Positions 5,876 through 23,817 of a DNA stretch of 64,000 bases are shown piece by piece (within the stretch, counting starts at the first letter, position 1; every line of letters begins with the position of its first letter). Under the pieces are notes generated by a model. It did not search any database and had not been told where the DNA came from. It saw nothing but the letters and a program-made list of their open reading frames with translations. The stretch comes from Polyangiaceae bacterium. Lineage in GTDB: Bacteria; Myxococcota_A; Polyangia; Polyangiales; Polyangiaceae. The translations under genes were made by a program, and so were the position numbers. The stretch is from positions 816,334 through 880,333 of the forward strand of contig JAXLYR010000002.1 of NCBI GenBank assembly GCA_046351325.1, given 5' to 3'.

Positions 5876-5928
5876 CGGTCGTCACCACAAGGTTCGGGGA
5901 GCGGGAGGGCGCGTGCTATCGTGGACGC

Positions 5929-7311: not shown

Positions 7312-9074
7312 GTTCGCGGTATACTCCAGGTGTGCGGGCTCGCTCCGGCTCGGCCAATGCGAATGCAGCCCAAGCCGACGCGCCCGATCAGCGCATCGGC
7401 CGCTACGCCATCTACGGTGACATCGCGACCGGCGGTATGGCGACCGTGCACTTCGGTCGACTGCTCGGGCAGGCCGGGTTTTCCCGTGATGTAGCCATCA
7501 AGCGGCTGCACCCGCAGTACGCCAAGAACCCCGACTTCGTCGCGATGTTCCTCGACGAGGCGCGGCTCGTCTCGCGCATCCTCCATCCCAACGTCGTGCC
7601 CGTCTTGGACGTCGTCGCCGAGTCCGGCGAGCTCTTCCTCGTGATGGAGCTCGTCCCCGGCGAGGCTCTTTCGAAGCTCGTGCGCAACACCCCCGAGGGC
7701 GTGCCCCTGCCGATCGCGGTCGCGATCGCAGTCGGCATGCTCGAGGGCCTGCACGCGGCGCACGAGGCGCGCGGTGAGGACAAACAACCGCTCGACATCG
7801 TGCACCGCGACGTCTCGCCACAGAACGTCCTCGTGGGGACCGACGGCGTCGCGCGCCTCATCGACTTCGGCGTCGCGAAGGCCGTGGGCAACTCGGTGAT
7901 GACGCGCGACGGTCAGATCAAAGGCAAGGTCGCGTACATGGCGCCCGAGCAGATCGCCGCGCTGCCCGTCGATCGGCGAGCCGACATCTACTCCGCCGCC
8001 GTGGTCCTTTGGGAGATGGTCACCGGTCGTCGGTACTTCGGTGAGGGCATCGAGTCCGACGCTGCGCTCGTCATGCGCGCGATGAACCACGAGCCCGCGC
8101 CGCCGAGCTCCGTGCGCAAGGAGATCCCTGCCGAGCTCGACGCCATCATCCTGAAGGGCCTCAGCAAGACCCCGGCGAATCGCTTCGCGACGGCGCGCGA
8201 GATGGCGCAGGCCCTCGAGAAGATCGCCGCGCCAGCGGCCGCGCGTGACGTCGCCCGCTGGATGGAGGCGAAGGCCGGTGAGGCCCTGCGTCGGCGCGCC
8301 CACCAGATGTCCGCGTTCGACCTCTCGATCGCGACCGAGCTGCCCGGCCGGTCCTCGATGCTCGCCGCGGCGAAGATCATCCCGCGCACCGACTCGAAGC
8401 TCGCGTTCCTCGCGCGGCCCGCACCCGAGCAGGACGTCGGATCGGGCGTCGAGACCTCGCCCGCGATCGCGGCCGCTCGCGCGAGCAAACCTCAGGATTT
8501 GGCAGCGATCGCGCAGCCCGCGGCGAGCCCCGCGAGCCCGCCCCAGGGAGCCGCGCTCGAACCTGTGAGCGCCGTCGAGCCTGAGAGCGCAGCTCCACGA
8601 GCGACCGTCGCGCTGGTCGACGAGGCGAGCCGACACGAGTTCGTCCTGCCGCAGGCGGCTGGTTCTCGATCGCGACGGAGCGCCGGTTGGATCGCGCTCG
8701 CGCTCGTCTTGGCCTCGGGCGTCGGCTTCGTGACCGCGCGCATGTTGGATCGAAGCGAGCGACCTCTGGTCGCGGCGCGCCCTTCTTACGGGGAGCGCGG
8801 GCCTGCTGTGGCGACGTCGCTCGCGCCGGGTGCCGCGGCGCCGACTGCGACGACCGCGCAAGGCTCGGGTGGGGCGAGCGCAAGCGCGGCCGCGTCGGCT
8901 AGCGTGTCCGCGCCACGGCCAGCGCTGACCAACACGAGCTCCAACAAGGCACCTCAGCCCGCGCGAACCACCACCGCGACGACCACGGCCGCAGCTCGGC
9001 CGGGCTCGTGCGACCCGCCCTACACGATGACTGCTGACGGCGTGAAGCGCTTCAAGCCGGAATGCCTCCGCTGA
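7308..9074 (+). CDS. Serine/threonine protein kinase (Hanks-type) with C-terminal TM segment and Ala/Thr/Ser-rich tail
   Basis: Kinase motifs VAIKRL, HRDVSPQNVLV, DFGVAK, APE. Predicted TM helix WIALALVLASGVGFV. Translationally coupled to the upstream sigma-54 activator. Confidence 0.85.
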   Translation: MSSRYTPGVRARSGSANANAAQADAPDQRIGRYAIYGDIATGGMATVHFGRLLGQAGFSRDVAIKRLHPQYAKNPDFVAMFLDEARLVSRILHPNVVPVLDVVAESGELFLVMELVPGEALSKLVRNTPEGVPLPIAVAIAVGMLEGLHAAHEARGEDKQPLDIVHRDVSPQNVLVGTDGVARLIDFGVAKAVGNSVMTRDGQIKGKVAYMAPEQIAALPVDRRADIYSAAVVLWEMVTGRRYFGEGIESDAALVMRAMNHEPAPPSSVRKEIPAELDAIILKGLSKTPANRFATAREMAQALEKIAAPAAARDVARWMEAKAGEALRRRAHQMSAFDLSIATELPGRSSMLAAAKIIPRTDSKLAFLARPAPEQDVGSGVETSPAIAAARASKPQDLAAIAQPAASPASPPQGAALEPVSAVEPESAAPRATVALVDEASRHEFVLPQAAGSRSRRSAGWIALALVLASGVGFVTARMLDRSERPLVAARPSYGERGPAVATSLAPGAAAPTATTAQGSGGASASAAASASVSAPRPALTNTSSNKAPQPARTTTATTTAAARPGSCDPPYTMTADGVKRFKPECLR

Positions 9075-9934: not shown

Positions 9935-9948
9935 CGGTGAAACGTCAG
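9931..9948. terminator. Short hairpin (CTGACG-gtgaaa-CGTCAG) spanning the stop codons of convergent genes
   Basis: Perfect 6-bp inverted repeat with a 6-nt loop. No U-tract follows, so this is a weak bidirectional terminator candidate. Confidence 0.25.
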
Positions 9949-11021
9949 AGATAACGCAGCCGGGGCGCGAGCTCGTCGAGCGGCGCGACCTCTTCGATCG
10001 CGCCCGCGTCGATGGCGGCCTTCGGCATGCCGAAGATCACGCTCGTCGTCTCGTCCTGCGCGAGCGTGCGTCCGTCCGCGCGGCGGATCGCGAGCGCACC
10101 TTGCGCGCCATCGCGGCCCATCCCGGTCATGACGATCGCGCAAGCGCGTCGACCGTAGACCTTGGCCGCGGAGGTCATCGTGAGGTCGGCGGCAGGCCTG
10201 CAGCCGTGCACGAGCGGACCGTCGTGCAGCACGACGAGCCCGCGATCATCGAACTCGAGGTGTCGATCGCCGGGCGCGATGAGCACGAGCCCAGGGCGTG
10301 GGCGATCGCCGGCGCGAGCCTCGCGCACGCGCACGAGCGACTCGGCGTCGAGGCGCTCGGCGAGCGAGCTCGTGAAATGTTCGGGCATGTGCTGGACGAC
10401 GACGACGGCGTGGCGTGTGTCGGCGGGCAAGGCAGGGATGAGCCGCGAGAGCGCAGCGGGACCGCCGGTCGAAACCGCGACGACGCAGAGCTTCGAGAGG
10501 ACGGCGGTGGCTGCGGGCTCCGGAGCGCGTCGGTTCGGTGTGCTGTCGGGCGCCGGCGTCTTCTGCGGGCGCGAGGTGCCCGCGCGCTGCATCGATCGGG
10601 GGCGCGACGACGCGGCCGCGACCAGCTTCTGCGTGAGCTCGTCCTGGACGCGGCTGAGATCGGCGGAGACCTCGCCGGCAGGCTTCGTCACGAAGTCGAC
10701 CGCGCCCGCGCCGAGCGCGTCGAAGGTCTCGCGCGCGCCCTTCTGCGTGTGCGCCGAGAACATCACCACGGGGGTCGGCTTCACGCGCATGATCTCGCGA
10801 ACGGCGTCGGCGCCGGTCTGCCCCGGCATGTTGAAGTCCATCGTCACGACGTCGGGTGTGAGGGCCTGCACCTTCGCGAGCGCGTCGGCGCCGTCGCGCG
10901 CTTGCCCCACGACTTCGAAGCGACCCGTCGCGGTCAGCGTCCTCGCGATCGCGGCGCGCATGAAGCTCGAGTCGTCCACGACGAGGACGCGGATGCGCTG
11001 CGTTTTGTCTCCGACGGTCAT
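9945..11021 (-). CDS. cheB: Chemotaxis response regulator protein-glutamate methylesterase CheB (REC + methylesterase)
   Basis: N-terminal receiver (RVLVVDDSSFMR...TMDFNMPGQTG) and methylesterase domain (AVSTGGPAAL, HMPEHFT, IVMTGMGRDG). The start ATG overlaps the upstream gene's stop (ATGA). Confidence 0.85.
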   Translation of the reverse strand: MTVGDKTQRIRVLVVDDSSFMRAAIARTLTATGRFEVVGQARDGADALAKVQALTPDVVTMDFNMPGQTGADAVREIMRVKPTPVVMFSAHTQKGARETFDALGAGAVDFVTKPAGEVSADLSRVQDELTQKLVAAASSRPRSMQRAGTSRPQKTPAPDSTPNRRAPEPAATAVLSKLCVVAVSTGGPAALSRLIPALPADTRHAVVVVQHMPEHFTSSLAERLDAESLVRVREARAGDRPRPGLVLIAPGDRHLEFDDRGLVVLHDGPLVHGCRPAADLTMTSAAKVYGRRACAIVMTGMGRDGAQGALAIRRADGRTLAQDETTSVIFGMPKAAIDAGAIEEVAPLDELAPRLRYL

Positions 11022-12793
11022 GCGACGTCTCCCTCGTCTCCCTCGCGGCGCGCGGCGATCGATCTCACCACGTAGCCCGTCACGGGCTCGCTCACACCCT
11101 TCAGCTCGAGCCCGACCGCGGCCTCGACCTCGACGAGCTCACCGAGCGCGTCGCGCGTCGATTGGCTCACGAGCACGCCCCCGATGGGGCATTTCGACTC
11201 GTAGCGGTTCGCGCGGTTCACGGTGTCGCCGATCACGGTGAAGTCGCGCCGCACGAACCGCGAGCCGAGGTCGCCGCGCACGAGCGGGCCGGTGTTGATG
11301 CCGATGCGCATGCGCAGCTTGATCTCGCGGCCCTCGTTGAAGGGGGCCATCGCGGACTGCATCGCGAGCGCCGCGCGCACCGCGCGCTCGGGCGGGGGAG
11401 GGGCGCCACGCACCTCGTCGAAGACCGCCATGATCGCGTCGCCGATGAACTTGTCGATGTCGCCGCCGTTGTCCTTCACGATCGGGCACATCGCGTCGAA
11501 GTAGGCGTTCAAGAGCTCGATCACCGCGCGGGGCGCGAGCCGCTCGGACATCGACGTGAAGCCCGCGAGGTCGGAGAAGAGCACGCTCATCGTGCGCTCT
11601 TCGGCGCGCACGGAGTGGAGGGCGCCCGCGGCCGCGCGCTCCTCGGCGGCGCGCCGCGCGCCGTCCGAGATGTAGAGCGAGCTCGCCTCTTTGTAGGAGG
11701 CGAGCCGTCGCTCGGCGAGCGTGCGCTCGACGATCGCCACGCATTTGTCTTGGGCAAACGGCTTGACCAAATACGCCGACGCGCCGGCCGCGCGGAGCTG
11801 CGCCATGTCGCGCTTCGAGTCGCGCGCGGTCAGCATGATGACAGGGATGTTCCTGAGCTCGGGATCACGGCGGAGCGCGTGAACGAGCTCGAAGCCGCTC
11901 ATCACCGGCATCTCGTAGTCGGACACGACCAGCGCGGGCCGGACGATGCGCGCGCGCTCGAGCGCGACCGCGCCGTCCTGCGCCGTCACGACCTCGAAGC
12001 CCTGCCGCGACAAGCAGTCCGCGACGAAGTGTCGCTGCGCCGGCGAGTCGTCGACGACGAGGATGCGCTCGCGCGAGCAAGGCAGCGAGCCCGCGATGAG
12101 GACGTGCACGCGGGTCGAGAGCTCCTCGAGGACGACGGGTTTGACGAGGTAGTCGTCGGCGCCGGCGTCGAAGCCGCGCTCGAGATCCGCGGCCTCGCCG
12201 AGCGTCGAGCAGATGAGCACCGGGACGTGCGCGCTCTCGCTGCGGGCCTTGATGGCGCGGCAGAGCTCGTAGCCATCCATGATGGGCATCTCGACGTCCG
12301 TGATGACGAGATCGACTCGCTGGGACTCGACGACCTTGAGGCCCTCGGCGCCGTCGCGCGCGGAGACGACGGAGAAGCCCTGCTCCTCGAGCATCGGGAC
12401 GGTGTGCCGATGAATCAGCGGCGAGTCATCGACGAGGAGGACGACCTTCTGCGTCGAGGTCGCGACGCCGACTGCATCCACGACCTCGGCGTCGGTGAAC
12501 GGCGCGAGCAGAAAGGAGTCGGCGCCGACCGAGCGCGCGAGCTCTCGGTCGCGGGCCTCGACGCCGAGCAGGACGAGCGACGCCGAGGTCCCGCGAAGCA
12601 TCGCGAAGGCCTGATCGATCGAGGCGTCCGGCAGGCGACGCGGCAGCACGATCGCGCTCGGCGTGAGCTCGCTCAGGCGAGCAGCGACCTCGCTCGCGGT
12701 CTTCACCGCGACCACGTGGTGACCGAGCGGCTCGAGCGGTCGCTTGAAGAACCCGAAGAGGAGCGGGCTCTCGGTGACGACGACGACGTTCAT
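11018..12793 (-). CDS. Multi-receiver response regulator (one degenerate REC plus two canonical REC domains) fused to a class III adenylate/guanylate cyclase domain
   Basis: The protein starts at ATG 12793 (MNVVVVTESPLL). Canonical receivers are VLLVDDSP...DVEMPIMDGYEL and ILVVDDSP...DYEMPVMSGFEL. The cyclase core is VLFSDLAGFTSMSE...GDAIMAVF...IGINTGPLVRGDLGS. The 1084-aa ORF in the track is a read-through: its N-terminal ~490 aa are out-of-frame CheA sequence. Confidence 0.85.
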   Translation of the reverse strand: MNVVVVTESPLLFGFFKRPLEPLGHHVVAVKTASEVAARLSELTPSAIVLPRRLPDASIDQAFAMLRGTSASLVLLGVEARDRELARSVGADSFLLAPFTDAEVVDAVGVATSTQKVVLLVDDSPLIHRHTVPMLEEQGFSVVSARDGAEGLKVVESQRVDLVITDVEMPIMDGYELCRAIKARSESAHVPVLICSTLGEAADLERGFDAGADDYLVKPVVLEELSTRVHVLIAGSLPCSRERILVVDDSPAQRHFVADCLSRQGFEVVTAQDGAVALERARIVRPALVVSDYEMPVMSGFELVHALRRDPELRNIPVIMLTARDSKRDMAQLRAAGASAYLVKPFAQDKCVAIVERTLAERRLASYKEASSLYISDGARRAAEERAAAGALHSVRAEERTMSVLFSDLAGFTSMSERLAPRAVIELLNAYFDAMCPIVKDNGGDIDKFIGDAIMAVFDEVRGAPPPPERAVRAALAMQSAMAPFNEGREIKLRMRIGINTGPLVRGDLGSRFVRRDFTVIGDTVNRANRYESKCPIGGVLVSQSTRDALGELVEVEAAVGLELKGVSEPVTGYVVRSIAARREGDEGDVA

Positions 12794-15058
12794 CGGTCGG
12801 GCTCCTCCTCGGCGTGTGGGCTCGACTGCGGGTGCGCGGGCCCGTGACCGTGATGTCCCGCGAGCAGCCGCTCGACCGCGCGCAGGAGCTCCTGCCGATC
12901 GTGCGGCTTCGTGATGTAGTCGTCGACGCCCGCGTCGAAGCCGCGCACGCGATCGATGCGCTCGCCGCGGCTCGTCACCATCACGATGGGCGTGTCGCGG
13001 TACGAGCTCATCGCGCGGAGGGCGCGCGTCAGCTCGTAGCCGTCCATGTGCGGCATCATCACGTCGGTCGAGACGAGGTCGAACGACTGCTGCTTGCAGA
13101 GCTCGAGTCCGATCGCGCCGTCTTCGGCCGTCGTCACCTCGAAGCCTGCGTCGGTGAACAGCCTGCGCAGGGACTCGCGCACGGTGTCCGAGTCGTCGAC
13201 GACGAGGAGCGAACCTCGCCGCCCTGGCCCGCGCGCGCGCTTCACCGCGCGGGCGCCGACGGGCCGCGAGAGCGCTCGCTGGATCACCGCAGGCACGTCG
13301 AGGATGAGCGCGCAGCGGTCGCCGAGCAGCGTCGCGCCCGACGCGCACGGGACGGCGGAGAGGAGCTGCCCGAGCGACTTGATCACGATCTCGCGCTTGG
13401 CGAGGAGCGCGTCGCAAGAGAGCGCGTAGAGCGCGCCGCTCGACTCCGTGAGGACCACGTGGAGCGCTTCGTCGCTGTCGGTGCCGTCGAGCTCGAGCGC
13501 GCGCGCGAGCCGCACGAGGGGCACGCTGCGCCCCTCGACGACGAGGGCCTCGCGGTCGCCGATCATCGCGACCTCCGAGGGCTGCACGACCAGCGTCCGC
13601 TCGACCGAGTCGAGCGGTATCGCGAAGACCTCGCCGCTCACCCGCGCGAGGATCACCTGGATGATCGCGAGCGTGAGCGGCAGCCTCAGCGTGAAGGTGC
13701 TGCCGCGGCCGGGCGCGCTGTCGATGTCGATCGTCCCCTTCAGCTTCGTCACGATCGTCTGGCGCACGATTGGTCCATTCCGACGCTGCGTCCTGACACG
13801 TCTGTAACCTTGCGGCCGTCGAGAACCCGGGCTTGAAGATGAGGTCGAGCATCGCGCGCGTATCCATCGCGGCGACCTCGCCGAGAGACGAGCCCGCGCG
13901 CTCGATCGCCTTCTCGGCGAGCCGCGCGGCGTCCATCCCGCGCCCATCGTCGGTCACGCGGATGACCACCTGGTTGCCGGCGGGTGCGAGCCTCGAGGCG
14001 CAGGACGGCCTCGGCGGGCTTGCCCGCGCGCTCGCGGCTCTTCGATCTTCGACGCCGTGATCGACGGCGTTGCGGCCGAGGTGCAGGAGCGGCTCGTCGA
14101 GGGCCTCATTGCGAGTCGGTCGAGCTCGGTGTCCTCTCCTCGATCCTCGAGGCGGGCCGATTTGCCGAGCGTCTGGCAGAGATCGCGCACGGTGCGCTGG
14201 TGCTTCCGAAAGATGCCGCCGATCGGGACCATCCGCAGGCGCATCACCTGCTCGCGGAGCTCGCTCGATCACCGAGGTAGCCCGTCGACGCGGCCGAGGT
14301 CGTCCGCGATGGACCCGAGCACGCGCTCGATTCGCCGAGATCTTCGGCGAAGTCGAGCAGGGGTCGAGGGTCGTTGAGGCCGCGCCCGCTCAGGCCCGCG
14401 GCGCGGCCATGCGCTGGAGAGCCTCGCTCGCGGCGAGGCGTCGCGCGAAGCCGCGGGTCGGCCGAGAGCTCGGTCGTGATCGAGGCGAGCACCCGGAAGG
14501 CGCTGCGCAGCCTGTCGCGACCGAGCACGAGCTCCCGACCAGGTTGAGCAGCCGATCGAGCTTGTCGAAGTCGACGCGGATCGTCTCGCCGCGCGGCGTG
14601 GGCCGCGCCGTGTGGGGCGTGCTCTTCGGCGGCCGGCGCGCCGGCGCCGACCTTCACCGGCTGGGCCGCGGGTTGATGAGGAGCGCTCGCGGTGAGCGGG
14701 CGCCGCGCCCGGGTTGCGCAGCGCTTGAGCACGCGCGCCGCGTCGATCGAGGACGCGCGCGACCTGGCTTCGTCGAGCATGGCGCGCAGGGCGTCGAGCG
14801 CGGCGAGCAGCGCGTCGACGACCGAGCTGTCGACGGCGGCGTCCCGTCGCGCAGCTGGCCGACCAAGTCCTCGGCGGCGTGCGCGAGCCGGTTCACCGGC
14901 TCGAGGCCCACCATCGCGGAGCTTCCTTTTACGGTGTGCAAGTCACGGAAGAGGTCGCGCAGGAGCTCCGCGTCGCCGGCCGCGCGCTCGATCGCGAGGA
15001 GCTTCTGTGAGACGCCCTCGACCCGCTCGGTGGCCTCGTCGAAGAAGAGGTCGATCAT
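12790..15058 (-). pseudogene. cheA: CheA-CheY hybrid histidine kinase (FrzE-like: Hpt, dimerisation, HATPase, CheW-like and REC domains). The reading frame is interrupted at least 6 times.
   Basis: The Hpt domain starts at ATG 15058 (MIDLFFDEATERVEGVSQKLLAIERAAGDAELLRDLFRDLHTVKGSSAMVG). P1 continues in another frame after ...GQLRDG, at a GGG run near 14835. The P3 segment GRELVLGRDRL lies in the 14244..14780 frame. MMRLRMVPIGGIFRKHQRTVRDLCQTLGK...GEDTELDR lies in the 13954..14247 frame. LLHLGRNAVDHGVED...NQVVIRVTDDGRGMD...LIFKPGFST lies in the 14272 frame, with a compensating -1/+1 pair near 14030-14090. The C-terminal 385 aa (HATPase end IVTKLKGTIDIDSAPGRGSTFTLRLPLTLAI, CheW-like, REC) are intact in 12790..13947. 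Confidence 0.6.
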
Positions 15059-15899
15059 GTCGTCGTCGACCGTTGGAGCCCAAACGAATCCGGGCTTGGG
15101 CTCGCGCTCCTCGGTGGCGGGCGTCGGCGCTGCGCGATCGGGGGCCGCGCGCGGCGGAGGAGGCGGCGGACGCGTCGACGAGCGCGCCGTGACCGGGCTC
15201 GGTGATGTGGCCCTGTGGCGACCCTCGAGTTCGGCGCGCGCCCTCGAGGTCGAGCTCCTCGACGCGCGCGCCCGAGCGGTCCGGGTTCGCGAGCTGCTCG
15301 ATTGCTGCGACGAGGACCGCGACGCCGTTCTCGAGGTGAGGGGAGCGCTCGCCCTCGACCGTCCGCTCGATCGCGAGCGCGAGCCGGCCCACGTCCTCCG
15401 CGCCGACGAGCAGGCCGAGAGCCCGATCTGGAAACGCGCCGCGCCCGCGAGGTCGCGCGCCGACAAGCCGGCCAGTTGTTCGCGAGCGTCGCTGCGTCGG
15501 CGCGCGCCGCGGCGATGTACTCGGCCCACATCTCGACGCCGCCGCTCACGGTCACGGTGCCTCCGTGGCGAAGCGATGGCGCCGCAGCCATCGCGTCGTG
15601 GCCGGGCCGCGTCGCGACGAGGTGAACGACGACCCCGGCGGCGCGCGCCGTCGTGAGGAGCCGGCGCAGGGCGGTCGCGTCGTCGTCGCTCGCGAAATCG
15701 ACCGCGTCGAGATCGATCGTCAGCTCCTCGAGCGTGCGCTCGCCGAGCGCCCGAGAGATCGTCGCCGCGAAGTCGTTCGACGCGGGGGCGATGCGCAGCG
15801 CGCGCATGTCGCGCTTCGTGGGTGAGCTCCGCTCTGTTCGAGAAGGTGGTGACGGCTCGGCCTTCGCGTCGCTGGTCGTCGGCGGCGCGGCGGTGATCG

Positions 15900-16761
15900 A
15901 GCGCGGCGGCAGCGTCGCGCGCGGCGCCCGCGCGGAGGGCGCGCTGGCGAGGACGGTGTCGAAGCTGAACCGCCAGGCTTTCCCATGTGATCTGCTCGCC
16001 GTGTCGGACCGGCGCAGCCCGTCGATCGTGTCGCGCAGCGTCTCCGAGTAGCCGACGAACAAGGCCGCCGGGCTCGAGCGAGGTGACGAGCTTGTCGAGC
16101 ACGCGCGCGAGCGGGTCGCCGCGTCGAAGTAGATGAGCACGTTGCGGCACCACAAGCACGAGGTGAAAGCCTCGCGGTTGCTCGGTCGTGCTGTGTTCTG
16201 CTGTTCCGGAAGCGCACGAGCGCGCGGAGCTCGGGCGACGCGCACGAGCTTGCCCTCGCGAACGAAGCCGCCTGCGTAGTCCTCGGGCACGTTGCCGAGG
16301 ACGGTCTCGGGGTACGTCGCGCGCTCGGCGAACGCGAGGGGCCTTCGGCGCTCACGTCGGTGCCGAGGATCGAAGGGCTGAACGTGGACGCGGAGCGCGC
16401 GGGCGAGGACGAGCGCGAGCGTGTAGACCCTCAGCCGCCGCGCAGCTTTCCAGGCCCAAATGCGTGGAGCGCGCTCCTGACGCGCACGCCACGCGGGGAT
16501 GACGACGTCGACGAGCGCTTGGACCTGCGGCGCGTGTCGAAAGAAGCGCGTCTCGCCGACGCGGACAGCCTCGACCAGGCCCGCGAGCCGGCTGCGCCGC
16601 GCGGCGGATCCGAGAAGCGCCGCGTAAGCGTCCTGCGAGAGCGAGAGCGCCCGCATGCGCTCCTCGGCGCGAGCCTCGAGCACCCACGCGGGCATCTCGA
16701 GACCCGCGTGCGAGCGGAGCTTGCGCTCGAGCGTGGCGAGCACCGCGGGCGAGAGAGCCAT
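15900..16761 (-). pseudogene. cheR: CheR-like protein-glutamate O-methyltransferase with multiple frame changes. The 3' boundary is approximate.
   Basis: From ATG 16761: MALSPAVLATLERK...GETRFFRHAPQVQALVDVVIPAW...RIW...VYTLALVLA...CRNVLIYFD...LFVGYSE. The CheR-like segments ILGTDVSAE and PELRALVRFRN are only readable in the +1 frame. That implies at least 4 frame switches within ~350 bp. Confidence 0.5.
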
Positions 16762-16767
16762 CGGCGC

Positions 16768-18784
16768 TCAGCCCTGCGTGTCGCCGCCGCTCCGCGGTCG
16801 CAAGAGGGCCTTCGGGCTCGACGTCTTCCTCTCTCGGAGCGATTTCACTGGCGGCTCGTAGGGGTCGGGCCGCTTCTGCCCGTCGAGGTTGAAGCCGCCG
16901 ATCGACTCCTGTTGGAAGGCGAGCTTCCGTGCAGGCGCTCGACTGCGAGACGGACTCCTCCGAGCCTCGAGAGCACCTCGGTCGCGTCCGACGGCGTCCA
17001 TGTTGCGCGCGATCTCGTCCGACACGACGGCTTGCTCTTGGACCGCGCGCGCCGTGTCGCGCACGACGCCGATCAACCTGCCGAGATCGCCGAGCGTGTT
17101 CGAGACGAGCTGCGTCCCCGTGTCGACCTCGGTGGTGCCGCGATCCATCGACGCGACCGCGGCCGTCGTCTGCTCCTTGATGGTCTGGATGAGGCCCTCG
17201 ATGTCTCGCGCTTCCGACCCGTGCGCCTCGCGAGCGACGAGACCTCGTCCGCGACGACCGCGAACCCGCGGCCGTGCTCGCCTATTTGCGCCGCTTGATC
17301 GCAGCGTTCAGCGCGAGGAGCGACGTCTGCTCGCTGATCTGCCGGATGACCTCGACGATGTTGCCGATGCGTCGAGCTCTCGCCGAGATCATGCATCTTC
17401 TCCGCGGCGTCCTCGACCGCGGTGCGGATCTGCCCATGCGCGCGACGGCGTTCGTCACCGAGACGTTCGACTTCTCCGCGACGTCGGTCGCTTGCGCTGC
17501 GTTCTCGGCGACCTGCTGGATGGACGCGCTGAGCTCGGTGATCGCTGCGGTCGAGCTCTCGACCTTGATGGTCTGATCCTTGATGCCCGACAGCATCTGC
17601 TTCGACGCGGCGCTGATCTCGGAGCTCGAGGCGCCGACGTGGAACGCTGCTTCGCGCACGTTCGACGCGAGCGCGAGCAGGCGATCGAAGACGCGGTTGA
17701 TGTTCGCCGCGAGGTCCGCGGTCTCGTCGCGGCTCGTCACGCTGAGCCGCTGCGTGAGATCGGTGTCTCCCTCGAGCAGGCGCTGAGATTGGTCGACGAA
17801 GCGCTTGATCGGGCGCGTGATCCAGAAGGCCATCGCGAGCGCGACGACGACGGAGAGCCCGATCCCCACGAAGATCTCGGTCCAGGGGATCTTGTTGCCC
17901 TCGTCCGCGGCGGTGCGCGCGCGCGTCAGGTAGATCTTGCCGATCGTGGTCTTCTCGAGGCCCTTATAGCCCTCGAGATCCTCCGTGTAGAAATCGAGAT
18001 CGGTCGCGCCCACCTTGAGGGTCTCGCGCGGCTGATCGTTCACGACCACCTTGACGACCTTCTCGGGTTGCAGCGATTTACCGAGCGCGGACCACTCCGA
18101 CTCGGGGAACCCCGAGGCCAGGACGTCGCTCCCTCGCAAGACGGTTGGCCGGATCCTGCGCTCGGCGACGTCGTCGCTCTGCTCGGAGTATTCGGTGTAG
18201 TAGCGCCCGACGCGGACCCCCGCGACGATCCCTCCGAGGACGTCGCCGTCCGCCGAGCTCCGCACCGGCACGCCCGAGACTTGGTAAGGCAGGTTGTCGA
18301 TCAGCGTGACGCGGTGGGCGAACACGCTGCCGTCGCGCACCCGCTCGGCTGCCGCGAGATCGGAGAGATCGTCCTTCTTGATCGGGCACCCTGGTGAGGC
18401 CCACAAGAGCTCGTTCTTCGCGTTGAAGATGAGGAAGAAGTCAGGGCCGACGCCGTTCTTCGACGAGAGCTTCCCGAAGATGCTCTCACCGACTCCGCTC
18501 ATCGACTCGGGGTCCTCTCCCGTTCCGACGGGCGCCGAGCCTCGCCCGAGCAAGCGTCGGAGCCGCGGATCCTCGGCGACGATCTCGAGGACGCCGGTCA
18601 TGCCGCGACCCGCTCGGTCCTCGTAGCCCTGGTAGCGTCGCAGGTGCTTTGCGAGGAAATTGCCTTGCATTTGCACCGCCGAACCTTGCTTCAGCACGAA
18701 CGTGCCGCCCACGATGAGCAGCGCCGCGAGCGTCAGACACCCGAGCAAGAACTTCACGAACATCGGGAAACGCAGCGTCTTCAT
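16768..18784 (-). pseudogene. Methyl-accepting chemotaxis protein (2 TM, HAMP, signalling domain). The signalling domain is split over at least 3 frames.
   Basis: The ORF 17282..18784 encodes a TM helix, a periplasmic domain, a second TM, HAMP and methylation helices, then ends ...TSLLALNAAIKRRK*. The conserved continuation QAAQIGEHGRGFAVVADEVSSLARRT is in another frame (ORF 17073..17396). The distal signalling helices MDRGTTEVDTGTQLV...AVQEQAVVSDEIARNMDAV are in a third frame (16768..17148). The first frame break falls inside the LLALNAAIEAARAGE motif. Confidence 0.6.
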
Positions 18785-18800
18785 CCGGGCGGACCCTTCG

Positions 18801-19334
18801 TCAGGTCGAGGGAGCTGTCGCGAGCGCGCGCAGTCGTTCGGAGCCGAGCAAACCTGCGGGGTCGAGGATACGCACCACGCCCGCTTGCGTCGAAGAGACC
18901 CCGCGCAGCACCGAGAGCTGCTCGGGGGAGAGTGTCGGAGGCGGCGCGGTGATCGCTTCGGGGGCGACGACCCGCAGCTCGGAGAGCGCGTCGGCGAGCA
19001 CGCCGAGGACCTTGCCCTCCCAAGCGAGCACCACGAGGCGACTCTCTGCGGTCACCACGGTCGGACCCATCCCGAGCCACGGCGCGAGATCGATCGCGGG
19101 GACGATCTCGCCGCGCAAGCTGAAGATCCCGACGAGCCACGGCGGCGTGAGGAACACGTGCGTGATGGGCCGCATGCGAATCGTCTCGCGCACCGCGGCG
19201 ATCGGCACGCCGATCTCTTGTTCACGGAGAAAGAAGCACACGAGCCGCAGCGCTTCGCTGTCGTTCGTGCTCAACGCTCTCTCCTCGGGCGCACGCGTCC
19301 GAAGAGGAGACACCGGCCGCTCGCGCCGAAGCAA
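18801..19334 (-). CDS. cheW: CheW-like coupling protein
   Basis: CheW domain ALRLVCFFLREQEIGVPIAAVRETIRMRPITHVFLTPPWLVGIFSLRGEIVPAIDL, intact in a single frame. It lies 17 nt upstream of the MCP gene. Confidence 0.8.
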   Translation of the reverse strand: MLRRERPVSPLRTRAPEERALSTNDSEALRLVCFFLREQEIGVPIAAVRETIRMRPITHVFLTPPWLVGIFSLRGEIVPAIDLAPWLGMGPTVVTAESRLVVLAWEGKVLGVLADALSELRVVAPEAITAPPPTLSPEQLSVLRGVSSTQAGVVRILDPAGLLGSERLRALATAPST

Positions 19335-19349
19335 GCGCGAAGCGACGGA

Positions 19350-20738
19350 TCAGGGCAACGCGACCGGCTCGGGGCTCGCGCGCCCCGCGCCCCAGCGGAG
19401 GAGCCGGCCATCCGCGGTCCGCGCGTACATCGAGTTGTTCGACGCGGCGATCTCGAGGACATCGTCGACGAGGGCCTTCTTCGGCGTCGGATCGAACGCG
19501 CCATTTTCGATCGTGCCGTCGCCTTGCCAGCCGTTGCGGCCCCAACAATAGACGTCGCCGCTCGTGAGCAGCGCGCACGCTGACGCGGTCGTGCCCGTGA
19601 CGTCGACGACCTGCGCGTCGAAGTCCGCGCCGAGCAAACGAGGTGGATAGTAGCGATTGCCATCCATCGGCGTCCCGGGGCCGAGCAGGCCTCGCTCGCT
19701 CCCGCCCCAAGCCCAGACTCGGCCCGCGACGTCGATCGCGAAGTTCGAGTCGTGTGCGGCGCCGATGCGGGCGATCGGCCCGAGCCCCTCGACGGTGAAC
19801 GGCGCGCCCGCGGCGACCGCGTTGTCGAACCAGGCGCCGATCTGCGGGACCCAGCAATCGACCTCGCCGGTCGCGAGGAGCGCGCACGCGCTCGCGATGC
19901 CAGCCTCGATTTGGAGGGCGTGCTGGACCTTGAGGATGGGGGTCTCGGCGCCGTTGCCCCACGCGTAGACGTCGCCGTCGGAGGTGAGCGCGGTGTAGAA
20001 CTCAGCGCGCTCCCAAGCGCCGCCGCCCACGACGTCGATGACGTCCGCGCCCGAGGGTAGGAGGGGCGTCGCGACCTCGGCGACGTAGCAGCACGCGGAC
20101 GCGCCGGCCCCGTCGTCGGGCCCGCCGTCGTTCGGTCCGATCCCGAGCGAGCCGTCTTGGTTGTTCCCGAAGCAGCGAACGGTGTGGTCCGCGCCGATCG
20201 CGCACGTCGATCGGGAGGCCGTCGACGCGAGCAGCACTTGATCGGCAGGCAGGACCGTCATGAGCGCGGGGCCGAGCTCCGCCCAAGAGGCCGCGCCGTT
20301 GCCCGACTCGCCGTAGGGGTCGTTCCCCCAACACGCGAGGCCCGCGTCCGTGCGCATGCACGTCGTGTAAGCGCTCGGTGAGGATCGAAGGCGGCGATCG
20401 CAGACGCCGCCGCTGCAGCTGAGCCCGTCCGCGCAAGTGCGCCCGCAGGCCCCACAGTCTGCGTTCGACGACACGAGGGCCTCGCAGGTCGCATCGCAGG
20501 GCGCGACCACACACGCGGCGCCACCTACACCAATGTCAGCGCCTCCGCCGCCCGCTGGAGCCCCACCCGTTCCGCCACTCGAAGCGCCTCCATTCGAAGC
20601 GCCTCCGTTCGAAGCACCACCGCTGCCGCCGCCGGGTGTGCGCCGCTCTTCGACGCCGAGGATGTCGGCGCACGCGGGCGCGAGCGCGACCACTGCGAAG
20701 ACGAGAGCTCGAACGAGACGCCCCGAGCGCGGCCTCAC
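19350..20738 (-). CDS. RCC1-repeat (beta-propeller) lipoprotein, paralog 1
   Basis: Candidate GTG start at 20738 overlapping the upstream stop (GTGA). Signal/lipobox LVFAVVALAPACAD. A Gly/Ser/Asn-rich linker. A Cys-rich segment CDATCEALVSSNADCGACGRTCADGLSCSGGVCD. RCC1 blades with repeated CWG/AWG motifs (CWGNDPYGESGNG, CFGNNQDGSLG, YAWGNG, WAWGGSERGLLG, YCWGRNGWQGDG). Confidence 0.7.
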   Translation of the reverse strand: MRPRSGRLVRALVFAVVALAPACADILGVEERRTPGGGSGGASNGGASNGGASSGGTGGAPAGGGGADIGVGGAACVVAPCDATCEALVSSNADCGACGRTCADGLSCSGGVCDRRLRSSPSAYTTCMRTDAGLACWGNDPYGESGNGAASWAELGPALMTVLPADQVLLASTASRSTCAIGADHTVRCFGNNQDGSLGIGPNDGGPDDGAGASACCYVAEVATPLLPSGADVIDVVGGGAWERAEFYTALTSDGDVYAWGNGAETPILKVQHALQIEAGIASACALLATGEVDCWVPQIGAWFDNAVAAGAPFTVEGLGPIARIGAAHDSNFAIDVAGRVWAWGGSERGLLGPGTPMDGNRYYPPRLLGADFDAQVVDVTGTTASACALLTSGDVYCWGRNGWQGDGTIENGAFDPTPKKALVDDVLEIAASNNSMYARTADGRLLRWGAGRASPEPVALP

Positions 20739-22132
20739 GGTAGCGCGAGCTCCGTCGGTTCGACCTTGCCCGTGAAGCCGTTCCACTCGCGCAAGAGCCC
20801 GCTCCCGTCGAGCGCAGCGAAGTCGATCGAGCTCGACCCGAGCTCGACGACGTCCGTGATGTGCGCCTTGCGCGGCGTCGGATCGATGGTCCCGTCGAAG
20901 GGTCGGCCGTCGCCTTGATGACCGTTCTCGCCCCAGCAATAGACCTCGCGTGACTCGAGCAGCGCGCACGTCGCGCTGTGCGTGCCCGTCACCGAGAGCA
21001 CAGGGGAGGGGAAGTCGAACTCGACGGGGTGGGCAGGGTAATAGCCCACGCCGATGGTGAAGCCGGGGCCCAGCTGGCCGTAGCGATTGTTGCCCCAGCC
21101 GTAGAGGCGCCCCGCCTGATCGATCGCGAAGCTCGTGATGTTTCCCGTGCCGATCGCGCGGACCTTGGGCAGGCCCTCCACGCGCGCCGGGGTCTGGTTA
21201 CATACATTATTGTTAGCAAGGCCCGTCCCCCACGCGTTGCCCCAGCAGTAGACCGAGCCCGAAGCGTCGAGCGCGCAGCCGAAATTCGCGCCAGCCGCGA
21301 TCTCCACCACGGACTCGAGCATCATCACGGGGCTCGGCGCGCCGCTGCCCCAACAGTAGGCTTTGCCGGCGGCGCTCAGCGCGACGAAGAACCCGTTCGC
21401 CCAGCTGACCCCGCCCGCCGCGATGTCCACGAAAGGCTCGTCGGGCAGCGCGGGCGTGGCCACGCTCGTCACATAGCAGCACGCGCTCTCGCTCGCGCCG
21501 TCCTCGGGCCCACCGCTCGCGCCGAGTCCGAGCGCGCCGTCCTCGTTCGATCCGACGCAGCGGATCTCGCCAGACTCGAGCAGCGCGCACATCGAGCCGG
21601 GCCCGCGCGCGGCGTAGGTCACCGGAGTCCCGTCGAACAACGTCGCGCGCACCGCGGGCATTTCGGGGCTCGCGGCCTCGCCGGACGCGGAGTCGCCGTG
21701 ACTCGTCGCCCCCCAGCACGCGAGCCCGCGCGCGTCTCGCACGCAGAGCCCCGACGCGCCGGTGCTGCTCCGCAGCTTGCGATCGCAGGTCCCCGCGCTG
21801 CAGAGCTCACCGTCAGCGCAAGCTCGATCGCAGCTCCCGCAGCTCGCGACCGAGCTCGTCGGATCGACGCAGACGCCGTCGCACGCGAGGAGCGGGCAGT
21901 CCGCGGAGCCAGCCTCGCCGCCGCTGCCGCCCTGCTCTCGAGCCCCGGCGCCGCCCTGCGCGCCGCTGCCCTGCGCGCCGCTGCCGCCTTGTCCTCCGTC
22001 AGCGTGAAAGGAGCGCTCCTCGACGCCCAGGATCTCCGAACACGACAGCGTGAACACGAGGAGCAACCCTGCTCCTCGCGCACGAGAGCGGCCCTCGAGC
22101 TTCGCGGCGATCGCGTATCGAATAACCAGCAA
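20735..22132 (-). CDS. RCC1-repeat (beta-propeller) lipoprotein, paralog 2
   Basis: Same architecture as paralog 1: signal (GLLLVFTLSCSE), Gly/Ser/Gln-rich linker, Cys-rich module, RCC1 blades (CWGATSHGDSASG, CVGSNEDGALG, YCWGSGAPS, YCWGNAWGTG, YGWGNNRYGQLG, YCWGENGHQGDG). No ATG; the start is a probable TTG near 22132, so it is uncertain. The 5' 430 codons of ORF 20735..23380 are antisense of the kinase gene and are rejected. Confidence 0.6.
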   Translation of the reverse strand: MLVIRYAIAAKLEGRSRARGAGLLLVFTLSCSEILGVEERSFHADGGQGGSGAQGSGAQGGAGAREQGGSGGEAGSADCPLLACDGVCVDPTSSVASCGSCDRACADGELCSAGTCDRKLRSSTGASGLCVRDARGLACWGATSHGDSASGEAASPEMPAVRATLFDGTPVTYAARGPGSMCALLESGEIRCVGSNEDGALGLGASGGPEDGASESACCYVTSVATPALPDEPFVDIAAGGVSWANGFFVALSAAGKAYCWGSGAPSPVMMLESVVEIAAGANFGCALDASGSVYCWGNAWGTGLANNNVCNQTPARVEGLPKVRAIGTGNITSFAIDQAGRLYGWGNNRYGQLGPGFTIGVGYYPAHPVEFDFPSPVLSVTGTHSATCALLESREVYCWGENGHQGDGRPFDGTIDPTPRKAHITDVVELGSSSIDFAALDGSGLLREWNGFTGKVEPTELALP

Positions 22133-22372: not shown

Positions 22373-23815
22373 ATGGCCTCGGGGGGACCTGATACGGAGT
22401 CCCTGCGTCCTCTCCACGCGGACGCAGCTCCGAGCCTCCCTCTCGGCTCGGTGGCGCTCGGCAAATACCAAGTCGGCCGCTGCATCGGTCGCGGCGGCAT
22501 GGGTGAGGTCTACGAGGCGACGCATACGGCGCTCGGCTCCAGGGTCGCGCTCAAGCTGCCGATCTCGCGCGCTACGACGAGCAGCGCGGCGGCGCGCCTG
22601 CTCCGCGAGGCCCAAGTGGCGGCCTCCCTCGATCCCGATCGTGTGGTGCGCGTGCTCGACGTCGGTGTCCTCTCCGACGGGCGACCCGTGCTCGTCCTCG
22701 AGCGCCTCGAGGGCTGCACGCTCGCCGAGCGCCTCGAGGCCGGGGCTCCCATCCAAGTGGGAGAGGCCGTCGATTTCACCATCGGCGCGTGCCTCGGGCT
22801 CGTCGAGGCTCACGCGCGCGCGGTCGTCCACCGCGACATCAAGCCGTCGAATCTCTTCCTCGCGCAGAAGCGCGACGGGACGACCACCCTCAAGGTCCTC
22901 GACTTCGGCGTCGCCGCGCTCCGCGCCTCCGCGGAGGCTGGCGACGTGCGGCTGACCGACAGCCAAGCGCCCGTCGGCTCGCCGCCGTACATGGCTCCCG
23001 AACAGGTGCGGGGGCGCGACGTCGACGCGCGCACCGATGTGTGGGGCCTCGGGGTCACGCTCTTCGAACTGCTCGCCAAACAGCGACCTTTCGACGGCGC
23101 CACGCCGGCCGCGGTCGCGGCCGCGATCGTCGCCGACCCTCCTGCGGAGCTGCGCGCGCTCCGCTCCGAGGTCCCGGAGAGCCTCGCCGCGATCGTGATG
23201 CGTTGCCTCGCGAAGGATCCGGCCGACAGGCCGCAGCACGCGCTCGCCCTCGCGCTCGAGTTGGCTCCGTTCGGCTCGGCCGCGAGCCGCGCTCAGATCG
23301 AAGCGATCGAGCGCGCCGCGAGCCCCACGCTCGAGTCTTCGGGCGCCCGCCCCGCGAAGGATCCCTCGTCCCCGACCCAAGAGGGCGCGACAGCCGAGCG
23401 ACGACCCTCCTCGAGGTCGAGGCTCGGCCTCTTCGGCGGAGCGACGCTCGCGGTCGTGATCGTGGCCTCGATTTGGACCGCGCGCACGATCGGTCGAGGC
23501 GAACCTACAACAATGTCAGCGGTCGCGCGGCCCGCTTCGACCGAGGCAGAGACCGCGCTCGCGAGCGCACCCGTGTCCGCGATCGCGTCGTCGTCCGCGG
23601 CCCTGTCCGCGGCCCTCCCTGCGCTGATCACGGTCGCGAGCTCCGGGCCAGCGGCGACCCCATCGGCGTCGGCTTCTGCCGCGCTCACTTCGCCTCCGTC
23701 CGCGCGTCGCGTCGAGCGCACGCCCGTCACGATCTCCAGCGCGCCCACGTCGTCTGCGTCGCCCCCGCCCCCCGCGACGACGCCGCGCCCCATCATGGAC
23801 ACGAGGAAATTCTGA
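22373..23815 (+). CDS. Serine/threonine protein kinase with TM segment and Ala/Ser/Pro-rich C-terminal region
   Basis: Kinase motifs GRGGMGEVY, VALK, HRDIKPSNLFL, DFGVAA, PPYMAPE. TM helix ATLAVVIVASIW. Confidence 0.85.
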   Translation: MASGGPDTESLRPLHADAAPSLPLGSVALGKYQVGRCIGRGGMGEVYEATHTALGSRVALKLPISRATTSSAAARLLREAQVAASLDPDRVVRVLDVGVLSDGRPVLVLERLEGCTLAERLEAGAPIQVGEAVDFTIGACLGLVEAHARAVVHRDIKPSNLFLAQKRDGTTTLKVLDFGVAALRASAEAGDVRLTDSQAPVGSPPYMAPEQVRGRDVDARTDVWGLGVTLFELLAKQRPFDGATPAAVAAAIVADPPAELRALRSEVPESLAAIVMRCLAKDPADRPQHALALALELAPFGSAASRAQIEAIERAASPTLESSGARPAKDPSSPTQEGATAERRPSSRSRLGLFGGATLAVVIVASIWTARTIGRGEPTTMSAVARPASTEAETALASAPVSAIASSSAALSAALPALITVASSGPAATPSASASAALTSPPSARRVERTPVTISSAPTSSASPPPPATTPRPIMDTRKF

Positions 23816-23817
23816 GG

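Follow-up and report, generated by a model that had tools for sequence, protein, structure and literature searches.

A conserved chemotaxis-like operon of uncultured Polyangia with a predicted adenylate cyclase output

We describe here a chemotaxis-like gene cluster from a Polyangiaceae bacterium, contained within a 64,000-nucleotide window of a 1.14 Mb contig in an NCBI MAG. The genes all lie on the minus strand, to which all gene coordinates below refer, in the order RCC1, RCC1, CheW, MCP, CheR, CheA-REC, REC-cyclase and CheB, as the first-pass annotation had them, and Pfam searches bear out the domain assignments. The tight spacing it described holds in part: there are four 4-nt overlaps and not three (GTGA at RCC1_a/RCC1_b and CheR/CheA, ATGA at CheA/cyclase and cyclase/CheB), and 16 nt separate CheW from MCP, but the gap between RCC1_b and cheW is 75 nt rather than 15, because CheW starts at the TTG at 19274, in agreement with the public record. 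No single-domain CheY is encoded in the cluster.

The two leading genes encode lipoprotein-like RCC1 beta-propellers. RCC1_a (20735..22132) is a 465-aa product with a TTG start (RCC1_2 79 bits, RCC1 50 bits, Stig1 23.8 bits), in which a signal peptide ending GAGLLLVFTLSC is followed by a Gly-rich linker, a Cys-rich Stig1-like module and the RCC1 repeats; the public entry MFO0548811.1 matches this product exactly. RCC1_b (19350..20738) is its 462-aa tandem paralog with a GTG start (Pfam RCC1_2 76 bits), a signal peptide MRPRSGRLVRALVFAVVALAPAC and the public record MFO0548810.1. CheW (18801..19274; exact product MFO0548809.1) is 157 residues long, initiates at a TTG following GAGGAGAGAG, 75 nt past the RCC1_b stop, matches Pfam CheW with 104 bits and is 51–69% identical to its orthologs. 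At the other end of the cluster, the intact 358-aa CheB (9945..11021; MFO0548800.1) carries an N-terminal REC (CheB_methylest 211 bits, REC 81 bits) and its ATGA start overlaps the cyclase stop.

The putative output regulator (11018..12793) is an intact 591-aa protein whose exact product is recorded as MFO0548801.1. The first-pass annotation had made its reading depend on a cyclase domain at these coordinates, and the domain is found there with a Guanylate_cyc score of 92 bits against a Pfam cutoff of 21.9, together with two Response_reg matches (202 bits). The protein is laid out as a pseudo-REC (residues 1–110), REC2 (117–230), REC3 (243–355), a helical linker (348–388) and a class IIIb cyclase domain (397–577). 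Its earlier description as a triple receiver is correct for the folds, since REC1 adopts the (beta-alpha)5 fold in an AlphaFold2 model (pLDDT 74–91), but not for phosphorylation: REC1 has LPRRLPD where the acceptor Asp would be, and only REC2 (D166) and REC3 (D292) have the acceptor. Both of these have a complete D-D-D-(S/T)-K set, with invariant phosphorylation residues. Within the cyclase domain, the metal-binding D408 and D452, K448, T519 and N526/R530, assigned by PDB alignments to Cya2 (2W01) and CyaB (3R5G), are invariant in 36–38 sequences. K448 corresponds to the adenine-specifying Lys, where the guanylate cyclase Cya2 has Glu, and T519 is as in Pseudomonas aeruginosa CyaB. Of the two products initially suggested, cAMP or cGMP, a mononucleotide cyclase is upheld but cGMP is disfavoured, as Lys448 and Thr519 point to cAMP. 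More than 120 homologs of ~590 aa with at least 66% identity all contain PF00072 and PF00211.

The genes between CheW and the cyclase were initially annotated as an MCP, a CheR and a FrzE-like CheA-CheY hybrid; the domains are present in that order, but none of these genes is an intact ORF here. The MCP (16768..18784) has two TM segments, a sensor region of ~270 aa that has no Pfam match, a HAMP domain and a signalling domain, with HAMP and MCPsignal fragments distributed over three frames. It is intact only over codons 1 to ~450, its longest ORF (500 aa) stops at 17282, midway through the hairpin-tip motif, and frameshift-aware alignment locates six frameshifts (17434, 17372, 17299, 17213, 16968 and 16924) at the same sites with three ortholog guides; the orthologs are intact at 671–705 aa. 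CheR with a C-terminal STAS-like domain (15552..16761) gives 55 bits to Pfam CheR and a weak STAS match on a broken ORF, with 3–11 frameshifts depending on which of three orthologs is the guide; the orthologs score 154–166 bits for CheR, with STAS and STAS_2 just below cutoffs. A separate small STAS-like ORF at 15460–15807, proposed previously, is rejected as a gene: the segment ~15603–15780 is the CheR C-terminal domain, and the CheR stop (15552) lies at the CheA GTG start (15555). The CheA-REC hybrid kinase (12790..15555) comprises Hpt, dimerisation, HATPase_c, CheW-like and REC domains, with Hpt (56 bits) in one frame and the HATPase_c tail, CheW (79 bits) and REC (107 bits) in another. It has 12–14 frameshifts and an in-frame stop at 14271, all within 15483–13769, and is intact from 13769 to its stop; the orthologs (879–994 aa) have all five domains. 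Because receptor, methyltransferase and kinase are all frame-broken, no working pathway could be made from the sequence as it stands in the window, a point that the first-pass annotation missed.

The damage is confined to a block of ~3.66 kb (13769..17434), in which a four-way DNA alignment reveals ~42 private indels of lengths that are not multiples of three, spread from 13772 to 17433; the same alignment contains no frame-breaking indels in the remaining 5.7 kb of the cluster. Both edges of the block fall inside genes (MCP codon ~452 and CheA codon ~655). The likeliest cause, which we favor over gene decay with good confidence, is a patch of a long-read MAG that was left unpolished. The in-patch indel rate is ~1 per 87 nt, and the computed probability of encountering none in the 2.3 kb of the MCP N-terminal and CheA C-terminal segments is ~2e-12. 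The alternative is that the frameshifts are real, such that mcp, cheR and cheA would be pseudogenes, the local Che pathway dead, and cyclase-cheB (perhaps with cheW) used with a kinase encoded elsewhere. We regard this as rather unlikely, as neutral decay should strike all dead DNA equally, yet MCP codons 1–450 and CheA codons ~655–920 have no indels where ~27 are expected at the in-patch rate, and the sharp mid-gene edges have the look of local consensus failure. Moreover, the undamaged MCP start differs from that of a 90%-identical relative (L087) by 17 synonymous and 3 non-synonymous codons (32 and 12 respectively for CheW), which points to strong purifying selection on it, and the MCP signalling domain between the frameshifts is 70–76% identical to orthologs, compared with 64–68% in the undamaged part. 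Elsewhere in the window, long reading frames of up to 1431 aa are unbroken.

Real decay does have evidence on its side, including the deposited sequence itself, with its indels, an in-frame stop and extra substitutions at otherwise conserved sites of the block. The block also has no repeats, unusual GC or homopolymer content that would predict sequencing trouble, and so no visible reason for a polishing failure there. In addition, the distant relatives L006 and L008–L011 have cyclase-cheB alone among unrelated genes, such that the pair can persist without adjoining che genes, and loss of the upstream mcp and cheA is a path already taken in the family. We also note that private substitutions within the block run roughly 4–6 points above the flanks, and that raised substitutions alongside indels fit decay as well. 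With an uncorrected long-read consensus as the most likely explanation, the operon is probably intact in the organism itself.

The chemotaxis-like genes of the window form one instance of a six-gene operon that is conserved among uncultured Polyangia (myxobacteria). The same six genes occur in the same order in ten loci, with cyclases 68–77% identical; the order was taken from gene calls in L081–L086, where the genes are intact with 4-nt overlaps at cheR/cheA, cheA/cyclase and cyclase/cheB, and from tblastn in L001, L002, L004 and L012. The proposal of a Che-like pathway with a dedicated class III nucleotidyl cyclase response regulator is supported, and at least 10 related genomes retain the architecture as an operon. 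In more distant relatives only cyclase-CheB remains, and cheB adjoins the cyclase in every locus that reaches past the cyclase stop, distant loci included.

The RCC1 genes have a different distribution. A tblastn search of 15 loci turned up no nearby RCC1 gene, and the ten complete orthologous operons have none either; the first-pass suggestion of RCC1 lipoproteins as extracytoplasmic MCP partners is not borne out as a conserved arrangement. An RCC1-like C-terminus lies upstream of cheW in only one very close relative (L087, a Logan contig with 90% nucleotide identity), where the upstream ORF ends GASRPTPEPVTLP before its stop, with RCC1_b in the window ending GAGRASPEPVALP; the adjacency is therefore shallow and lineage-specific. 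Upstream of cheW the gene varies by genome, being DnaJ-like, Lnb_N, C92-like or divergent, with L086 having an opposite-strand gene there. Several relatives have a DnaJ-like gene ahead of cheW; its counterpart in the window is 22 kb away, which indicates rearrangement. The RCC1 genes are local neighbours and do not belong to the conserved che operon. They could nonetheless act as extracytoplasmic MCP partners in the window's lineage, for example by presenting ligand to the periplasmic domain: they run in the same direction as the che genes and end just upstream of cheW with no terminator-like site found between RCC1_b and cheW, the relative shares an RCC1-like ORF at this position, and lipoprotein-type signal peptides on both proteins would place them in the right compartment. 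We consider this very improbable, given their absence from all of the orthologous operons and tblastn loci, the changing gene upstream of cheW, the rearrangement signalled by the DnaJ-like gene, and an MCP sensor domain that is 53–66% identical in genomes without RCC1 genes. The two genes were probably placed upstream of cheW recently in the window's lineage, outside of the conserved system.

The best reading of the locus is a Che pathway of the 'alternative cellular functions' (ACF) type, Wsp-like in its working, with a class IIIb adenylate cyclase as output. For the whole of this interpretation (a conserved six-gene ACF-type operon, a cAMP cyclase output, frameshifts from assembly error, and RCC1 genes as recent neighbours) we estimate a probability of about 0.6. 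The core operon would comprise cheW, mcp, cheR-STAS, cheA-REC, REC-cyclase and cheB. The parts of an array are encoded together, namely a transmembrane MCP (a periplasmic sensor of ~270 aa followed by HAMP), CheW and the CheA-REC hybrid kinase. Operon linkage suggests that phosphorylated CheA could donate phosphate to D166, D292 or both in the tandem receivers, and receiver phosphorylation may then act through the helical linker to alter dimerisation or activity of the cyclase domain, whose product, from the catalytic residues, would be cAMP. CheR and CheB would reset the receptor through methylation, CheA's own REC could serve as a phosphate sink, and the N-terminal pseudo-receiver of the cyclase is probably involved in dimerisation or docking. 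A point against this reading is that the window has no cAMP receptor or phosphodiesterase gene near the cluster.

It is also conceivable that the REC-cyclase is an independent regulator merely sharing the operon, with the Che output passing through CheA's REC or an unlinked CheY. CheA indeed ends in a REC of its own, in which the acceptor set is complete, the cyclase occurs in distant genomes without an adjacent CheA or MCP, and no experiment linking CheA to a class III cyclase was found in the literature searched. We think this arrangement quite unlikely, however, as in all 10 close loci the cyclase start shares a 4-nt overlap with the cheA stop and the cyclase stop overlaps the cheB start, which is the place of a CheY/WspR-type output, the operon encodes no further response regulator, and both receivers are invariant at every phosphorylation residue.

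The closest parallel to the adenylate cyclase pathway that we favor is the Wsp system of Pseudomonas, in which WspR (REC-GGDEF) is the cited model (PMC3447774). Both have a receptor, CheW, CheR, a CheA-REC hybrid and CheB, a response regulator with a nucleotide cyclase output that must dimerise, and no motor-binding CheY, and both fall in the ACF class. The window system differs in its class III (CHD) adenylate cyclase output in place of GGDEF, and the predicted messenger is therefore cAMP and not c-di-GMP; it also differs in having a pseudo-REC plus two receivers rather than one, a STAS-like tail on CheR, and a Polyangia host. The Che-like Pil-Chp system of Pseudomonas aeruginosa has an output that includes cAMP synthesis by the class IIIb cyclase CyaB (PMC3019171, PMC12129077; see also Fulcher 2010 on Pil-Chp and cAMP, as cited in PMC12654446). 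Among solved structures, the CyaB catalytic domain (3R5G) is one of the nearest to the window cyclase (E = 2e-26). The two have the Lys/Thr specificity pair in common, but the solved domain contains no receiver. Full-length CyaB is likewise not known to carry a receiver; its gene lies apart from the che genes, and its coupling to the pathway is indirect. In the window, receivers fused to the cyclase and a gene position between cheA and cheB imply direct phosphotransfer.

Receiver-carrying proteins with class III adenylate cyclase domains are also seen in Dictyostelium ACR and cyanobacterial CyaC, although these have their own histidine kinase domain and lie outside any chemoreceptor-CheA-CheR-CheB adaptation system; CyaC is reportedly activated by phosphotransfer to its receiver. 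The STAS-like module has a counterpart within che operons in CheS, a STAS-only protein of alphaproteobacterial che clusters that in S. meliloti binds to CheA and modulates phosphate transfer to the CheY proteins (PMC12654446), but in the window it is fused to the CheR C-terminus and not a separate ORF, with Pfam scores just below cutoffs. REC-cyclase regulators within che clusters are already catalogued bioinformatically: mononucleotidyl cyclase is named among the ACF output domains (PMC3447774), and a REC-CHD regulator occurs in a che cluster of the delta proteobacterium NaphS2 with CheR-TPR D8FCI6 (Munoz-Martinez et al. 2012, PMC3447774). The latter is a catalogue-level entry in a different organism, with a single REC-CHD and CheR-TPR. 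The family described here, with its three REC folds and CheR-STAS, is a distinct and widely conserved Polyangia operon known from sequence, and its predicted output is cAMP synthesis and not motor steering.

The chemosensory cluster is a run of minus-strand genes in which every domain named by the first-pass annotation is matched by Pfam, in the order claimed. Two RCC1 genes, RCC1_a (20735-22132) and RCC1_b (19350-20738), are joined by a GTGA overlap and separated by a 75 nt gap from cheW (18801-19274). A 16 nt gap precedes mcp (16768-18784) and a 6 nt gap precedes cheR-STAS (15552-16761), which overlaps cheA-REC (12790-15555) through GTGA, and successive ATGA overlaps connect cheA-REC to the REC-cyclase gene (11018-12793) and the latter to cheB (9945-11021), the last gene of the cluster. 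The two RCC1 genes, cheW, the REC-cyclase gene and cheB (211 bits in Pfam) are intact. CheW, MCP and CheA are all recognisable, with MCP and CheA frame-broken in the window but unbroken in the ten orthologous loci, and CheR is likewise discernible though broken, and unbroken in the orthologs. The REC-cyclase product is 100% identical to NCBI MFO0548801.1, a 'MAG: response regulator [Polyangiaceae bacterium]' from a 1,141,454-bp contig, and the CheB product is MFO0548800.1 in the public record. CheA-REC, REC-cyclase and CheB are the only regulators in the cluster, and single-domain CheY, flagellar and pilus genes are absent.

The window has a G+C content of about 70%, and its closest relatives are uncultured Polyangiaceae, Kofleriaceae and Haliangium genomes. 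The cluster is flanked upstream by a divergent plus-strand Ser/Thr kinase gene starting at 22373 and downstream by a convergent ORF ending at 9934, and the genes around it encode Ser/Thr kinases and sigma-54 activators. Among those of the window are a 1431-residue protein at 32228-36523 (minus strand), which combines protein kinase, TPR, GAF, sigma-54 activator AAA+ and HTH_8 domains, and three other Ser/Thr kinase or sigma-54 activator genes close to the cluster (5479-7311, 7308-9074 and 24836-26899). A promoter and terminator scan gave no useful result, and the sigma-70 consensus suits this group poorly; a scan of the neighbourhood found no genes for cNMP-binding proteins or phosphodiesterases. 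On the plus strand at 22373-24762 the kinase ORF (22373-23815) overlaps a TPR ORF in a different frame (coding signal at about 23640-24762), with a GC3 frame switch near 23,650-23,800, and these could be two separate genes or a single kinase-TPR gene interrupted by one frameshift. In the segment at about 28,400-32,200 codon periodicity is weak and G+C is lower (0.64-0.66 versus about 0.70). This segment holds a LuxR-type regulator ORF (28884-30275) along with others that match no family, and may be acquired or non-coding DNA.

The nucleotidyl cyclase domain expected within 11018-12793 is found by profile search at residues 400-576 (Guanylate_cyc, PF00211), scoring 92.2 bits where the cutoff is 21.9. 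On the basis of a structure model (mean pLDDT 78.5) and an alignment of 36-38 family members, the protein can be divided into a (beta-alpha)5 receiver fold (residues 1-108), a canonical REC2 (117-230; D122, D123, D166, S196 and K218), a canonical REC3 (243-355; D248, D249, D292, T322 and K344), a low-confidence helical linker without key residues (348-388), and the cyclase domain (397-577; D408, D452, K448, T519, N526 and R530), all of the listed residues being invariant. REC2 and REC3 are thus complete, with the acidic pair, phospho-acceptor Asp, Thr/Ser and Lys, but the N-terminal module (1-110) lacks the acceptor at the end of beta3, where the family has a conserved LPRRLPD, and is a pseudo-receiver; Pfam finds only two REC stretches in the protein. 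The earlier description of a triple receiver is therefore correct as to the three folds, although only two of them carry a phospho-acceptor Asp.

The catalytic residues narrow the likely product. The top PDB relatives of the cyclase domain are 2W01 (Synechocystis Cya2, E = 4e-28) and 3R5G (P. aeruginosa CyaB, E = 2e-26), and the metal-binding D408 and D452 and transition-state N526 and R530 are invariant in the 36-38 family members. K448 aligns with a Glu in the guanylate cyclase Cya2 but with a Lys in both CyaB and the phytochrome-cyclase fusion 6FHT, and T519 aligns with the CyaB Thr; both are invariant. In class III cyclases, Lys with Asp or Thr specifies ATP, and Glu with Cys, Ser or Gly specifies GTP. 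By these rules K448 and T519 predict cAMP, so that of the two products first suggested, cAMP or cGMP, the former is retained, and REC-cyclase is predicted to be a homodimeric class IIIb adenylate cyclase.

A separate small STAS-like ORF had been called at 15460-15807, but no such gene exists because the STAS-like segment (about 15603-15780) lies within cheR, whose stop at 15552 falls in the GTGA overlap with cheA, and forms the C-terminal part of CheR. The ortholog CheR proteins have a SAM-binding domain (154-166 bits) and a C-terminal segment that matches STAS or STAS_2 below the cutoffs, most closely in L081 (5707-7116), with STAS_2 at 28.7 bits (cutoff 29.2) and STAS at 20.7 (cutoff 22.6). 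STAS scores are 17.6-18.1 bits for L082 (6076-7215) and L001 (6447-7631) and 16.6 for the window (15552-16761, minus strand), consistent across orthologs and all below cutoff. No account of CheR fused to STAS came to our notice, and the nearest precedent is CheS, a STAS module in a che operon that binds CheA (PMC12654446). CheS is a stand-alone STAS protein, however, whereas the STAS-like module in this family is fused to CheR.

The order cheW, mcp, cheR, cheA-REC, cyclase, cheB is conserved in ten loci with cyclases 68-77% identical to that of the window, as determined from gene calls for L081-L086 and by tblastn for L001, L002, L004 and L012. In L081-L086 the mcp products are 671-705 aa (HAMP and MCPsignal), cheR products 371-469 aa, cheA-REC products 879-994 aa (Hpt, H-kinase_dim, HATPase_c, CheW and REC) and cyclases 585-597 aa, and the 4-nt overlaps of the window recur. 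We considered whether L004 might be a frameshift-ridden assembly, but its contiguous full-length tblastn matches rule this out. In five loci from more distant Polyangia (L006 and L008-L011, cyclase 51-57% identical and at about 10001-11750 in most) only cyclase and cheB are kept together, and mcp, cheA, cheW and cheR were undetected within 10 kb of the pair, which has unrelated ECF sigma/anti-sigma, N-acetyltransferase and MutS-like protein genes as neighbours. No other part of the system is as stable as cyclase-cheB.

The window copy departs from these orthologs in that no single ORF covers MCP, CheR or CheA. The MCP ORF terminates in '...LLALNAAIKRRK', and the remaining hairpin-tip motif 'GEHGRGFAVVADEV' is in a different frame. 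Frameshift-aware protein-to-DNA alignment guided by proteins of three intact orthologs places six frameshifts in MCP, at the same sites with all three guides (17434, 17372, 17299, 17213, 16968 and 16924), 3-11 in CheR, and 12-14 in CheA together with an in-frame stop at 14271. DNA alignment shows that codons invariant in the orthologs are hit by 1-, 2- and 5-nt deletions and one 2-nt insertion. When the whole cluster is aligned four ways, about 42 indels private to the window, with lengths not a multiple of three, all fall within 17433-13772; alignment noise at the start of cheW aside, cheW, MCP codons 1-450, the last ~320 cheA codons, the cyclase gene and cheB are free of them. Substitutions private to the window, counted where the three other sequences are in agreement, are likewise raised in this block, by about 4-6 points relative to its flanks. 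The public MAG record splits the broken region into at least seven proteins, with a 500-aa MCP fragment (MFO0548808) and six accessions (MFO0548802-807) between it and the cyclase, inside the frame-broken stretch; a further 178-aa fragment, P0154, is annotated 'methyl-accepting chemotaxis protein'. Given this fragmented annotation, domain-based surveys would miscount the locus.

No other damaged patches were identified among the candidates, the ORFs at 49.6-53 kb and 28.4-32.3 kb being ordinary genes without split domains in Pfam. A homology-free test for such patches (strong GC3 periodicity with short stop-free stretches) is insensitive at 70% G+C and did not clearly flag even the known one, and a whole-ORF GC3 filter was too crude for gene calling where spurious ORFs overlap, so a frame plot was used instead.

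There are two accounts of this block, namely that it is an assembly artefact, or that mcp, cheR and cheA are real pseudogenes and the operon is dead in this lineage. We favour the artefact with good confidence, in part because the damage forms a block with edges inside genes. In a dead operon, decay would reach the MCP N-terminus and the CheA C-terminus as fast as everything else, but both are free of indels; at 1 per 87 nt, the probability of none in these 2.3 kb is ~2e-12, and of none across all 5.7 kb of flank ~e^-65. The undamaged start of MCP is also under selection. L087, an independent assembly (Logan, SRR1027651) compared with window positions 18570-19480, shares 90% DNA identity with it across cheW and the MCP start (71 codons), and the codon differences (32 synonymous and 12 non-synonymous in cheW, 17 and 3 in the MCP start) reflect purifying selection rather than drift. 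The artefact is further favoured because the stretches of the MCP signalling domain between frameshifts retain 70-76% identity to orthologs, because other long genes in the window, reaching 1431 aa, are unbroken, and because the 1.14-Mb MAG contig suggests a long-read assembly. On the side of decay, the excess substitutions fit it as well as they fit error, and the block has no feature that predicts trouble, with a GC of 0.72 versus 0.69-0.71 in the flanks, few homopolymers and no repeat elsewhere in the window; this composition leaves repeat-driven misassembly, GC extremes and homopolymers unsupported as causes. A search for an independent, near-identical sequence across the patch found none: L087, the sole close relative, is 907 nt long and ends short of the patch; among proteins, the corrected MCP C-terminus has no match above 78% identity besides the source's own fragment, and scanning metagenomes for the MCP sensor gave a single locus at 51% identity. 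Assembly error is the most likely reason that the window copy is frame-broken.

The two RCC1-repeat proteins are as first described, with RCC1_2 scores of 76 and 79 bits (cutoff 22). As tandem paralogs, both carry a lipoprotein-like signal peptide, a Gly-rich linker and a Cys-rich module in addition to the RCC1 repeats; the signal peptides end in ...LAPAC and ...FTLSC, and with a non-canonical lipobox their lipoprotein status is putative. The suggestion that they are partners of the MCP is unsupported by conservation, as RCC1 genes adjoin the che operon in none of ten orthologous operons and in none of 15 loci examined by tblastn. The gene upstream of cheW varies (DnaJ-like, Lnb_N, C92-like, or on the opposite strand in L086) and is never RCC1. 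Only in L087 does the upstream ORF end, in GASRPTPEPVTLP before its stop, in a way that resembles the end of RCC1_b, GAGRASPEPVALP, and cheW is preceded by a spacer of 158 nt there versus 75 nt in the window. With an RCC1-like ORF end beside cheW only in this 90%-identical relative, the RCC1 pair is a shallow, lineage-specific neighbour of the che operon. The DnaJ-like gene that several relatives have immediately before cheW is represented in the window by a homolog (35% identity) located 22 kb away at 41048-41731 (minus strand), so this lineage has been rearranged. We also note that this homolog lies inside the plus-strand 827-aa histidine-kinase ORF (40868-43351), in a part with a minus-strand GC3 signal, and that this ORF is probably over-extended at its 5' end. 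The earlier observation thus holds in part, as does its interpretation, which is supported for the Che-to-adenylate-cyclase operon, conserved in ten loci, and not for the link to RCC1.

As read from sequence and synteny, the operon shows a full set of receptor, CheW and CheA-REC, adaptation enzymes, and one dedicated enzyme-type regulator encoded between cheA and cheB. In the pathway that we propose the MCP would control CheA, and CheA~P would phosphorylate REC2, REC3 or both on REC-cyclase; phosphorylation could then alter the cyclase dimer geometry through the helical linker and so change cAMP synthesis. CheB~P and CheR-STAS would adapt the receptor, and the REC of CheA itself may serve as a phosphate sink. 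We put at somewhat better than even, roughly 0.55, the probability that this is a Polyangia chemoreceptor array wired directly to cAMP, in which CheA phosphorylates a tandem-receiver class IIIb cyclase to give an adapting, methylation-tuned signal.

Although many Che-like pathways serve purposes other than motility, to our knowledge few have a defined output, and the best understood is Wsp, which makes c-di-GMP; the one Che-cAMP link that we know of, that of Pil-Chp to CyaB, is indirect. The operon described here is similar to Wsp in its predicted manner of working, in which CheA-REC would act on an enzyme-type regulator, but the Wsp output is the REC-GGDEF protein WspR. REC-cyclase has no GGDEF match, its output domain being PF00211, and because GGDEF is the defining feature of Wsp we do not regard the system as a member. 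With Pil-Chp it shares cAMP as the predicted output and a CyaB-like catalytic domain, and differs in having its receivers fused to the cyclase. The idea of such a pathway is already catalogued, since a survey of cheR-TPR clusters lists one che cluster with a REC-CHD regulator (receiver with class III cyclase domain) and counts mononucleotidyl cyclases among the outputs of 'alternative cellular function' (ACF) pathways (PMC3447774); full-text searches turned up no experimental work on a Che pathway with a REC-cyclase output.

Only 2-5 MCPs per genome are reported for Sorangiineae and Nannocystineae (PMC6194562), so the Che-cyclase system would be one of very few in its host, and with so few chemoreceptors each chemosensory system in this group probably controls something important. 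If the proposed wiring is true, it would make this the first case of a Che pathway whose direct output is a cyclic mononucleotide, and an operon with the receivers on the cyclase itself would offer a simple, testable case of signalling from receptor to CheA to cAMP with adaptation built in.
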